Positions 16,851 through 40,017 of a DNA stretch of 64,000 nucleotides are shown here, piece by piece. Within the stretch, counting starts at the first letter, position 1; each line of letters starts with the position of its first letter. The stretch comes from a virus (lineage: Duplodnaviria; Caudoviricetes), in the IMG/VR virus record IMGVR_UViG_3300031853_000003, positions 64,001 to 128,000 of that record; one strand, given 5' to 3'. Below the pieces are notes generated by a model. That model saw only the letters and a list, made by a program, of their open reading frames with translations, made no database searches and was not told the origin of the DNA. Position numbers and translations under genes: made by a program.

Positions 16851-17570
16851 ATGAGAGTTCGTAAGAATATGAAGAAAGGCTCGCCAGAGGAGTTCATGCA
16901 AGCTGTTAACAACAAGATTCAAGATCTCGGCGGATCCGCTGGCTCAGTTGAGTCTGCTACTGCTGTAACCGCAGGTGTTTCGCTTTCGAGAGGCCTGCAA
17001 GCCGTATGGGATAAGATCAACAGAGGTGTTGGCAGCAGAGCCGGTGCTCAGCTTGCTATCATTGTAAATGCTGGTGACGGTTCTACAATGGCTGTTATCT
17101 CAGAAGATGAGAACAACGGCGAAGAATTCTACATCAACTACTGCCCAGCACAAGCTGACAGCGTTGTTGAAACTGAAGACGACGCTGCTAACGAGATCAT
17201 TTCACTCTGGGCAGACGACGTAGAATCCAGCGATAACATAGAAGAATGCGATGACACATTTGAGCCGATTGAGGCTGCGGACGAGCCCGAAATCACAGAT
17301 GAGATCGTCAACTACGCAACCGATGTAGGCCAACGTGTTGTAGAGATGCTCAAAGACGCTGGTATGAATGCTGATGTCACAGTCGTAGATAACTCATATC
17401 TTCAGATCACAATCGAGGATGAGCCCGGCTTAGGTGACGCCAACAGCTATGAACACATCTTAGACCTTGATGCGTTCGTTCCCGAAGAAGATCCTGAAGA
17501 CGATGCTGAGACGGTCTATGACAACATCTTATCTGAGATTCATGAGATGATTGAGGGTGACAGCGAATGA
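16851..17570 (+). CDS. acidic protein, putative processed internal head protein
   Basis: Repeated VESA/VTAG/VESS/IEAA motifs between acidic segments. Confidence 0.55.
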   Translation: MRVRKNMKKGSPEEFMQAVNNKIQDLGGSAGSVESATAVTAGVSLSRGLQAVWDKINRGVGSRAGAQLAIIVNAGDGSTMAVISEDENNGEEFYINYCPAQADSVVETEDDAANEIISLWADDVESSDNIEECDDTFEPIEAADEPEITDEIVNYATDVGQRVVEMLKDAGMNADVTVVDNSYLQITIEDEPGLGDANSYEHILDLDAFVPEEDPEDDAETVYDNILSEIHEMIEGDSE

Positions 17571-18391
17571 GAGACTGGTACTTCGGTAAAGACGAGGCAG
17601 AGAGATTCGGGGATCTGATCTGTGAGAAGCTTGCAGGCAAGACTGTATCTAAACGCAAAGACCTCGCAGAAGAGCCCGGCGGCCTGATCTACGAAGCAAA
17701 CAGACTCGGTATTGAAGATTTCTTCGACCTCCTCAAAGCCCTTGAAGGTCTGTGCTATCAGGGCAAGGCTGCCGAGATCGATGACTCTACTTACAAAGTA
17801 TATGGATGTGACAGCGTAACGTCTGCTGAAGAACCTACTATTCAGGATTACACAGTGGATGATAAGCTTCAACGCTATATCCATTCGCTTATAGGTCAGA
17901 TTGAGATACTCGCTGACGATTACGGTGTAACTATTCTGAAAGCAGACATCGAAGGAGATCAGTTCGTTGTTGTAGTTGACGGACATTCTGAAGTAGATGT
18001 TCCGCTTGAGTGTATTGTACCAGACTTCAAGTCGCTCGACAACGATGCGGAAGGTATCCTCCAGGTTGCACTAGGTATGGCGACGTTTGAAGACATATCT
18101 AGCTGCGATGATGTAATGTCCTCAGATGAAATTGTTGTTGATGACACATGGACTTGGATAGATTCTAAGACAGTATCTGACGGAGACGGCTTCCTCACAG
18201 AGTACACCTTATATCATAATGAGGCAACTGGTATGTATGTTTGCATCTTCGGAGATTCTGATCTGTATGGTCCTGAAGATACTGAGCCAGATTTCGAGAC
18301 GGACTCTGAGGAAGAGGCGTACGAGTGGTTCAATTCATACACCGGACTTGATGATGACGATGACTGGTCATTGTATGACGAGGAGATTTGA
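17567..18391 (+). CDS. acidic multi-segment protein, putative internal head protein
   Basis: ATGA overlap; internal VTSA and ISSC/VMSS motifs. Confidence 0.55.
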   Translation: MRDWYFGKDEAERFGDLICEKLAGKTVSKRKDLAEEPGGLIYEANRLGIEDFFDLLKALEGLCYQGKAAEIDDSTYKVYGCDSVTSAEEPTIQDYTVDDKLQRYIHSLIGQIEILADDYGVTILKADIEGDQFVVVVDGHSEVDVPLECIVPDFKSLDNDAEGILQVALGMATFEDISSCDDVMSSDEIVVDDTWTWIDSKTVSDGDGFLTEYTLYHNEATGMYVCIFGDSDLYGPEDTEPDFETDSEEEAYEWFNSYTGLDDDDDWSLYDEEI

Positions 18392-18873
18392 TGGCAGGAT
18401 CTGAAATCGGCAAGAAAGCCGAAGATAAAATCAAACAATGGTTAGATAGACCTGACGAAGGTTACTCCTTTGACAGAATCTATGACCAGATGACTGGATT
18501 CTACGGAAGCAAAAACATCGCTGATTTCACCTGTTTCAAATCACCTAATGAATACTACATCGAAAGCAAAGCAACCTGGGAAGATAGATTTGACTTCAAC
18601 ATGATAACAGATACACAGCGAGAAGGACTTCTGCAAAAGTCAAAGATCGAAAACGTGTATGGTTGGGTTGTTGTCCTATTTGCTTCTCACAAGCGAGCTT
18701 TCGTACTTGATATTCGAGACATTGAGAGATGTCGTACGGAGCTAGGTCAGAAATCTCTCAATATAAGAAAGATAATGAAATGGCCAATTCCGTACAAAGA
18801 GATTCGAACTGTTCCTAACAATCGAAAGCAACTGCTTGATTATACGGGAGAGATCGAAGAATATATTCGCTAA
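18391..18873 (+). CDS. RecU-like Holliday junction resolvase / PD-(D/E)xK nuclease
   Basis: GKKAE...ADF...IESKAT...Q motif arrangement. Confidence 0.7.
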   Translation: MAGSEIGKKAEDKIKQWLDRPDEGYSFDRIYDQMTGFYGSKNIADFTCFKSPNEYYIESKATWEDRFDFNMITDTQREGLLQKSKIENVYGWVVVLFASHKRAFVLDIRDIERCRTELGQKSLNIRKIMKWPIPYKEIRTVPNNRKQLLDYTGEIEEYIR

Positions 18874-33466: not shown

Positions 33467-33889
33467 GGGCGTGCCAGGTTTCGACGGGGCGCGAGAACAA
33501 ATAAGCTACGCTAGTATGCCACCGCTAAAGGGGCAACCTAAAAATAACTGACAAAGTTGTTTCTATTCACCCCGCTGCTATTGCTGCTCTTTTCGCAAGA
33601 AAGGCTGTAGCTTAATCAGCGATTTCGGGTACCAAAACGATATGGCCTGCTACTCGACGCATATCTGAGGTTCAAGGAAGTAGTAGCATCACAGTTCGTC
33701 ATCTCTGTAAAAGATGACTGGTGGAGCGATGAAACTTTTTCATCCCTAAGAGGGTAGCTGCCCTCAAGCTTCGGCTTGAACCAAACGACGTTGACAACCC
33801 GTACACAGCTTGAAATTTGTCTATGGCGTAAGAAATGCTTATTCAAGTATTCGTTTCGGACGCGGGTTCGACTCCCGCCACGTCCACCA
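33467..33889 (+). ncRNA. ssrA: tmRNA (transfer-messenger RNA)
   Basis: GGGCGTG/CACGTCC acceptor stem with G3.U70, GGTTTCGACGGG 5' motif, T arm GCGGGTTCGACTCCCGC, ACCA end; tag ORF 33550-33615 after AATAACT. Confidence 0.93.
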
Positions 33890-38690: not shown

Positions 38691-38711
38691 TTCGTTAAAC
38701 ACAGTAGATTC

Positions 38712-38787
38712 CGGGGTGTAGCGCAGCCGGAAGCGCGCCTGGTTTGGGACCAGGATGTCGGGGGTTCAAATCCCTTCACTCCGACCA
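38712..38787 (+). tRNA. tRNA-Pro(UGG)
   Basis: CGGGGTG/CACTCCG acceptor, loop TTTGGGA, ACCA. Confidence 0.92.
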
Positions 38788-38789
38788 TA

Positions 38790-39275
38790 TACTGACGCAG
38801 TTCTGTTTCTGTCTGCGTTACAGTCGAGCCTACCAATGGTGAAATGATATATCCGTGTAGGACAGGGCTGGCCTATCTCAACTAGGTGTGTACAATAGTT
38901 AATAAGAAGAGTATTGCGAGAACCTTATCGCACCTGATGACGACGAAAGTATGTTGAGTAAACTAAGTGGACATCGGGAGTGCAAGCAAGTCCGAGGGGA
39001 GAAACACCATCTAACATATGAAGCTAGTAGCTGTAACTTCTGGCCAGGACGTTTCAGATGAAGTATTTCAACTTCCGTTTGAGATCCTTCAGCGGCTGTC
39101 TAGTAGCGAGAGTGGTAGCATTGCTGCAAGATTCATGAATCACTGAGTGAACGACTTCCGATGCTAGTTATTCATACCGGTATTCGATGTTAGATGACGA
39201 GGGACGTTAATTGGATACGCAAAGGAGCTGGAGTAACACCTCTGCCAGCTGTGTAGGACGAACTTGTATCTTAGG
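38790..39275 (+). ncRNA. candidate large structured ncRNA (about 480 nt)
   Basis: No credible ORF; many hairpins and a perfect long-range 10-bp helix (39008-39017 with 39187-39196). Confidence 0.55.
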
Positions 39276-39284
39276 AGGTAACAC

Positions 39285-39542
39285 ATGTACAAAGTAAGAT
39301 GTATAAGACCTGGATATTGCGGATACTCATCTAGGACGTATTTCAGAACATTCAATACATTGTCACAGGTAGCTGCCTTCATAGAAGATTTCACCAATCC
39401 TGTTTACAAGATAGAGAATCTTACAGCTAAAGAAAGAAGCATCTTATGGATGAAATGTCTTTCAATTGAGAAGAAAGAGAATCCATCGCTTCGTAACATT
39501 TGGCAAACAAAAGCAGCCGATAGATATAGACGCTGTGTTTGA
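39285..39542 (+). CDS. hypothetical protein
   Basis: AGGAGG RBS. Confidence 0.55.
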   Translation: MYKVRCIRPGYCGYSSRTYFRTFNTLSQVAAFIEDFTNPVYKIENLTAKERSILWMKCLSIEKKENPSLRNIWQTKAADRYRRCV

Positions 39543-39547
39543 TACAT

Positions 39548-39619
39548 ACTACTATAGCTCAGTTGGTAGAGCAGCCCTCGGGAGGAGGGAAGACACTTGT
39601 TTGATCCAAGTTGGTAGTT
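39548..39619 (+). ncRNA. aberrant tRNA-like element (pseudo-tRNA)
   Basis: All four arms pair, but it has G33, loop CGGGAGG, T loop TTTGATC and no CCA. Confidence 0.65.
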
Positions 39620-40017
39620 GTCGGTCACGCACTTGGCCTACTGTCAGATGACAGACTCTCTGGAGATGTGCCAGTTGGTTTTGAAGTCCTGCCTGTAATA
39701 GCGATAGAGGGTACCAGCCTAGGAAAGACCCAACCTACAGGGAACATATCTTACTGGGAGATATGTAAACACACAATTTCATACCTAGTGCGATAATACA
39801 GTCGGCCTCATAGCTTGAGATACTTGTCCGCACGTGCACGCGGATATGGCCGCCGTATCCAGTAGTTATCGTTAAATGGAGTTAGACGAACAGCTAGGCA
39901 CACTTCCTTTAGCCCACCACACCTTATCTGATATTTTTCCCAACCCCACAGATGACCTCTTAATCAGGTGATTCGTTATTTATCACATAACAAACACCTT
40001 ATTAGGAGGTCATTTGT

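Follow-up and report, generated by a model that had tools for sequence, protein, structure and literature searches.

An apparently undescribed family of structured RNAs in phage tRNA arrays, usually followed by a small basic open reading frame

The window analysed here is a 64,000-nucleotide stretch of DNA corresponding to bases 64001-128000 of a complete phage genome from the cattle rumen (155,391 bp, direct terminal repeats), and the sequencing runs containing the stretch were, where labelled, mostly bovine gut metagenomes. Approximately 93.5% of the genome lies under ORFs. The region behind tRNA-Pro(UGG), which a preliminary description of this DNA had counted among the longest ORF-free stretches of a densely coding genome, is the second-largest ORF-free gap; the largest lies just before the window (genome 62368-62872, 505 nt, 48% GC) and begins at a TCGTTA motif. 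The neighbourhood contains a tmRNA (33467-33889) with a tag starting DKVVSIHPA, similar to the tag start in the related phage lineage L086, together with six tRNA calls, an NAD-dependent DNA ligase and thyX. Two relatives of the ligase were named from Lachnospiraceae and Clostridium MAGs, which makes a clostridial host for the phage plausible. Outside the window, at genome 17312-20117, there is a diversity-generating retroelement encoding a 435-aa reverse transcriptase, with a template repeat at 18379-18498 and a variable repeat at 17312-17431 that ends a 1150-aa gene; 12 of the 12 differences between the repeats fall at template adenines.

On the plus strand a TCGTTA motif (38692-38697) lies 14 nt ahead of tRNA-Pro (38712-38787), whose CCA is encoded, and the non-coding stretch begins immediately 3' of the tRNA. 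Across the genome A/T-flanked TCGTTA occurs 39 times on the plus strand and twice on the minus strand, and 26 of 57 plus-strand copies of the motif are intergenic, with intergenic DNA making up 8.7%. This strand bias and intergenic placement suggest that the motif behaves as a phage promoter; a sigma70 region-2 search of the genome returned no match. Since neither another TCGTTA copy nor a terminator-like site lies between 38692 and 39869, co-transcription with tRNA-Pro is likely, and the promoter that had been proposed as shared by the tRNA and the non-coding stretch probably drives the tRNA, the RNA and a small ORF behind it as one transcript. A long hairpin further downstream (39948-40017), which may regulate translation of the DNA ligase, contains a TCGTTA copy (39973) together with the ligase gene's ribosome-binding site.

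The RNA covers approximately 470 nt of the plus strand (38788-39260), with its ends placed by the tRNA CCA and by the last motif conserved in homologs. RNA contigs were found in three rumen metatranscriptomes from three studies, covering 38801-39180 (depth 91), 38764-39260 (depth 22) and 38839-39219 (depth 31), with the flanking ORFs at a depth of 0-3 and a DNA run flat at approximately 28 in the same coverage analysis; contigs of this kind, from runs picked for containing the stretch, give neither strand, ends nor true level, and suggest that the RNA is transcribed and accumulates as a stable, abundant species. Taken by itself the single RNA sequence is not beyond chance. Its single-sequence folding is unremarkable (MFE z = +0.43) and 8% of dinucleotide shuffles contain a perfect 10-bp inverted repeat. 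The duplicated 9-mer picked out in the preliminary description is real, but 34% of shuffles have one and homologs lend its meaning no support. It is the covarying helices in homologs that carry the case for structure. Among 21 close strains, one of which (L003) is 97% identical, 7.8% of the RNA columns vary; for third codon positions of the next ORF the figure is 28% (24/86). No paralog of the RNA was found in its own genome. The earlier proposal of a structured, apparently transcribed non-coding RNA behind tRNA-Pro is supported by covariation and by the RNA contigs, and we regard it as almost certain that the RNA is real and structured and very likely that it falls outside current Rfam families.

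Simple similarity searches did not reveal the distant homologs. In a BLAST search of GenBank phages the matches listed span the tRNA only and coverage of the query stays below 80% in every record, exact patterns gave one chance match for the long helix described below and none for 38985-39004, and a BLAST-level search of 30 ligase-related phages missed homologs later found by a covariance model. Distant relatives of the 85-aa ORF downstream of the RNA led to lineages L085-L093, in all of which a related RNA lies immediately ahead of the ORF, and a motif taken from the shared 3' end of these RNAs matched only true members in viral and metagenome collections; L110 and L166 were added by looser patterns. 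A covariance model of the 3' core recovers members outside its training set, ten further phage records and L166, with one match per genome and E values of 1e-10 to 1e-12. In GTDB genomes a strict pattern gave 0 matches and a relaxed pattern six, of which one is real: L166, a contig from a MAG that carries a tRNA array and is possibly phage-derived. The collection of homologs proposed in the preliminary description yields a covarying core and a family of approximately 12 lineages, mostly of gut phages. Every copy lies in or beside a tRNA array and, where the 5' flank is present, most start just after a tRNA (Pro, Met, Leu, Gly, Asn, Cys, Tyr or Val); RNA length ranges from approximately 225 to 510 nt. 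The literature searched on such settings covers ROOL, GOLLD, OLE and theta ribozymes, and the family, which is not described there, is apparently undescribed.

The tRNA arrays of these phages hold other ORF-poor sequence. The 793-nt gap that contains the family RNA in L100 probably holds further RNAs too. ORF-free, slightly GC-rich gaps of 800-1500 nt are found at L086:2436-3270, L007:3377-4443, L010:486-1553, L016:5924-6897, L026:3103-4603 and L012:2547-3843; those of L007, L016, L026 and L086 are essentially unmatched in Rfam, and such gaps likely represent more uncatalogued large RNAs. Upstream of the family RNA in L094 lies an ORF-poor stretch of approximately 740 nt (minus strand, ~6400-5660) with no Rfam match, in which 30 nt match positions 1059-1088 of E. 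coli 23S rRNA, the L11-binding region, at 93% (E 1.4e-5). The match apparently continues approximately 230 nt later, and the stretch has a 20-nt word in common with the 5' part of the L100 gap; it is a candidate for a phage RNA that mimics rRNA.

Compared across homologs, the defining part of the RNA is a core of approximately 150 nt carrying variable arms and not the ornate 480-nt whole. In 5' to 3' order there are variable hairpins, a helix P-a on a helix P-b, a linker of 14-26 nt, GAGGG, an optional arm, a G-run with helix P-c, AAGG, helix P-d and GUGUA. The variable 5' domain (38788-38913) has three hairpins, one of which bears a GGUGAAA loop (38838-38844) present in some homologs; the domain is absent in L110 and shows only one-sided changes among close strains. 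The paired motifs listed in the preliminary description at 38791-38824, 38829-38833/38857-38861 and 38871-38875/38883-38887, as well as those of P-a and P-d, were all located at these positions. P-a (38915-38919/38928-38932) stacks on the 7-bp P-b (38933-38939/38972-38978), which encloses 31-55 nt. Because automatic helix finders gave mixed registers, for P-c as well, P-a and P-b were anchored by hand, and in ten hand-anchored sequences 4/4 core pairs of P-a are kept and P-b is complete. In an automatic alignment of six sequences RNAalifold gave two-sided changes at 5/7 pairs of P-b. Both helices are missing altogether in L110 and neither was found in L100. The GAAA-tetraloop stem described earlier (38942-38950) is present but homologs do not support it.

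The near-invariant GAGGG (38994-38998) probably forms the 5' side of a 4-bp pseudoknot with 39239-39242, as the loop of P-d contains CCUC, complementary to GAGG. The L110 loop has CCUA instead, and UAGGG stands in the equivalent context, one candidate compensatory change (UAGG/CCUA) that is ambiguous, with a further GAGGG 20 nt upstream in the same RNA, and for this reason we consider the pseudoknot only probable. Behind GAGGG, an arm of approximately 190 nt (39008-39196) is closed by the perfect 10-bp long-range helix of the preliminary description (39008-39017/39187-39196), which is continued by 39018-39027/39164-39175 after an 11-nt bulge on the 3' side. The helix is consistent within its clade, but the arm is an optional, lineage-specific insert, replaced by a 17-nt hairpin in L085 and by unrelated arms in others and absent in L095 and L123. 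The segment 39197-39220 comprises the G-run and P-c (39205-39207/39217-39219) with a conserved unpaired GGAU; P-c has 4 bp in most homologs and is 79% paired, and in other phages its loop accommodates as much as 190 nt of inserted sequence.

The terminal core (39221-39255) consists of AAGG, P-d, a loop with RGUAA and CCUCUG, and the invariant GUGUA. P-d is a 6-bp helix (39226-39231/39245-39250) with a conserved loop of 13-15 nt; 15 sequences retain 89 of 90 pairs, each of the six positions shows two-sided changes, and its 98.6% pairing was reached by 0/500 shuffles. The 3' domain that had been drawn around this helix stands in part, as P-d covaries but the enclosing GGATAC/GTATCT helix (39213-39218/39266-39271) is not kept in homologs. 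In total the conserved 3' core spans approximately 65 nt.

A Shine-Dalgarno sequence (39273-39278) and an ORF for a basic protein of 85 aa (39285-39542, plus strand) follow the RNA. Both this ORF and the probable pseudoknot were missed in the preliminary description. Homologous ORFs lie directly behind the RNA, approximately 25-45 nt after GUGUA, in eight lineages and encode basic proteins of 70-97 aa, the most distant of which share 15-26% identity; the ORF is absent in three lineages (L100, L110 and L166) and one lineage cannot be judged. The protein was the route to three of these eight lineages; the lineages found via the RNA give four with the ORF, three without and one unknown. In a profile search of 35 phage records the ORF was found beside the RNA in 13, with one more where the contig ends before it, and the RNA without the ORF in two; two weak matches elsewhere in these records (E ~0.01) were discounted. 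The profile was built from the same RNA loci, and the informative part of this result is the absence of the ORF elsewhere. Linkage is one-way: the ORF was seen only with the RNA, and the RNA was sometimes seen without the ORF. An AlphaFold model of the 85-aa protein (pLDDT 77) has the order beta-beta-alpha-beta-alpha-alpha. The protein found no name in Pfam, PHROG or the ESM Atlas and no clear fold match, with a best VIA-align Z of 4.6 and no match to the RnpA Pfam family; a weak Foldseek likeness (E 0.29) to the epsilon subunit of RNA polymerase is a lead only.

Behind the ORF lies a second non-coding, apparently transcribed element (39548-39909; RNA contigs at depth 2-19). It begins with a tRNA-like structure, called by ARAGORN as tRNA-Ser with an odd anticodon arm, and its Rfam match is only to tRNA. 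Approximately 355 nt of it are missing between short direct repeats in 19/21 close strains, yet L003-L006 and L084 have it, the most distant relative among them. The element is probably another, dispensable non-coding RNA.

Rfam 15 scans at both gathering and E-value level left the RNA in the window and all homolog cores unmatched, so that the covariance scan proposed in the preliminary description found no known family for this RNA and its suggestion of a possibly new class, neither ROOL nor GOLLD, holds. Several specific candidates were also rejected. A reverse transcriptase-associated RNA (retron, DRT or UG27) does not fit, as the reverse transcriptase of this genome is 83 kb away in the diversity-generating retroelement and the 14 other RNA-bearing records gave no reverse-transcriptase match. 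Neither the repeated pseudoknot array nor the terminator nor the ToxN-like nuclease of a type III toxin-antitoxin system was found at the locus. As a mimic of 16S rRNA helix 23 the terminal hairpin scored 11 against a null mean of 18 in a shuffle test, and words resembling hammerhead, twister and twister-sister ribozymes were, on inspection and in Rfam, not conserved or of the wrong topology.

The reading we favour, at a probability of roughly 0.45, is that these RNAs form a new family of trans-acting, structured scaffold or binding RNAs of phages that bind the downstream basic protein and have a role like that of ROOL and GOLLD, as a separate family. A single transcript from the TCGTTA promoter would carry tRNA-Pro, the RNA and the 85-aa ORF; the RNA would be cut free during tRNA maturation and, as the RNA contigs suggest, would accumulate as a stable RNA. 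It folds into a compact conserved core carrying exchangeable arms, the helices being shown by covariation and the pseudoknot probable, and would most likely serve the phage translation module in an architectural or binding role, much as ROOL, GOLLD and OLE do; gene linkage points to the small basic protein encoded right behind it as its putative partner. The three lineages without the ORF fit with a free-standing RNA. OLE (RF01071) is likewise a large RNA with protein partners, but it is a bacterial RNA of extremophiles and gave no match to the family. Against the scaffold reading, a nanocage of fixed geometry is hard to reconcile with arms so large and variable.

An alternative that we consider unlikely, though the best placed of those below, is a new ribozyme class whose pseudoknotted core with invariant unpaired purines is a catalytic centre that would cut or process tRNA-array transcripts, with the protein as an optional cofactor like RnpA. 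Approximately 24 invariant positions are grouped in junctions and one loop, and the helices and arms turn over, a pattern seen in large ribozymes. With RNase P RNA and RnpA the family has in common a core that is probably pseudoknotted, a variable periphery, a small basic protein and a tRNA context. The order of helices differs, however, and RF00011 and RF00010, including their P4 regions, gave no match where the controls are detected in 11 genomes; neither the group I intron model (RF00028) nor any other Rfam ribozyme matched. The family core also lies 200-450 nt from the tRNA end at a distance that is not conserved, and the RNA runs contain no joint skipping the element, a weak argument. Gut phages do place theta (HDV-like) ribozymes at the 3' end of tRNAs (PMC10879173), but in the family the sequence adjoining the tRNA is the least conserved part, with no conserved HDV fold there and no HDV-like match in Rfam.

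Less probable again is a cis-regulatory leader, a riboswitch or autogenous control element of the small ORF. All ORF-bearing copies do have a ribosome-binding site approximately 15-30 nt behind the invariant GUGUA. Against this, the full 3' core is kept in L100, L110 and L166 with no ORF behind it, the RNA contigs reach a far greater depth than the ORF does and end before it, and no conserved alternative helix that would sequester the Shine-Dalgarno sequence was found.

We think it improbable that the family is a strongly reduced, divergent ROOL or GOLLD, two RNAs that occupy the same genomic setting (bioRxiv 10.1101/2024.12.08.627333). Like ROOL, the family consists of large, structured, probably pseudoknotted and apparently abundant RNAs right behind tRNAs in rumen or gut phages, and a GGUGAAA loop and a hairpin-loop GAGGG with CCUC further 3' are found in a true ROOL as well. 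Yet ROOL measures approximately 530-660 nt and the family a very variable 225-510 nt, and the family is usually paired with a small ORF, a candidate partner that ROOL lacks. In the window neither ROOL (RF03087, cut-off 99.1 bits) nor GOLLD (RF02032, including its 3' domain) matched at E <= 10, with ROOL itself serving as a positive control and no true GOLLD available as one. Two phage genomes (G033 and G034) each carry a separate 290-bit ROOL 4.4 kb from their own unmatched family RNA, and the ROOL model and our family model R1 each fail to match the other RNA. The control ROOL has the helix joining its 5' and 3' ends and the P1-P16/19 architecture, whereas family homologs have no common 5' end or closing helix. 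GOLLD too follows tRNAs and has a variable 5' and a conserved 3' part, but its model spans 416 positions against approximately 65 nt for the family 3' core. The two ROOLs lie at G033:C1:139180-139798 and G034:C1:97342-97960 (L116 and L117), the former starting 7 nt after a tRNA-Ala, and the same phages carry the shortest member of the family.

Type III antitoxins are pseudoknots, and the ORF was never seen without the RNA, but an RNA antitoxin to a protein toxin, or a decoy against host tRNA-cutting defences, is the least probable of these explanations given that neither repeats nor a terminator lie between RNA and ORF and that the protein is approximately half the size of ToxN-like nucleases and matches none.

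Few classes of large non-coding RNA are known from bacteria or phages (ROOL, GOLLD, OLE and raiA), most of them with a function still to be settled, and the family adds an independent one in the tRNA-array setting. It offers easier access than those classes do, with a candidate protein partner, a minimal natural version of 226 nt in L110, and arms whose exchange between lineages marks out the core. Small pieces of the family might be present among the 10,006 unnamed viral candidates of 30-151 nt in PMC10690425. If the RNA proved to be catalytic it would represent a new ribozyme class. The tRNA arrays of gut phages of 100-160 kb hold several uncatalogued RNAs.
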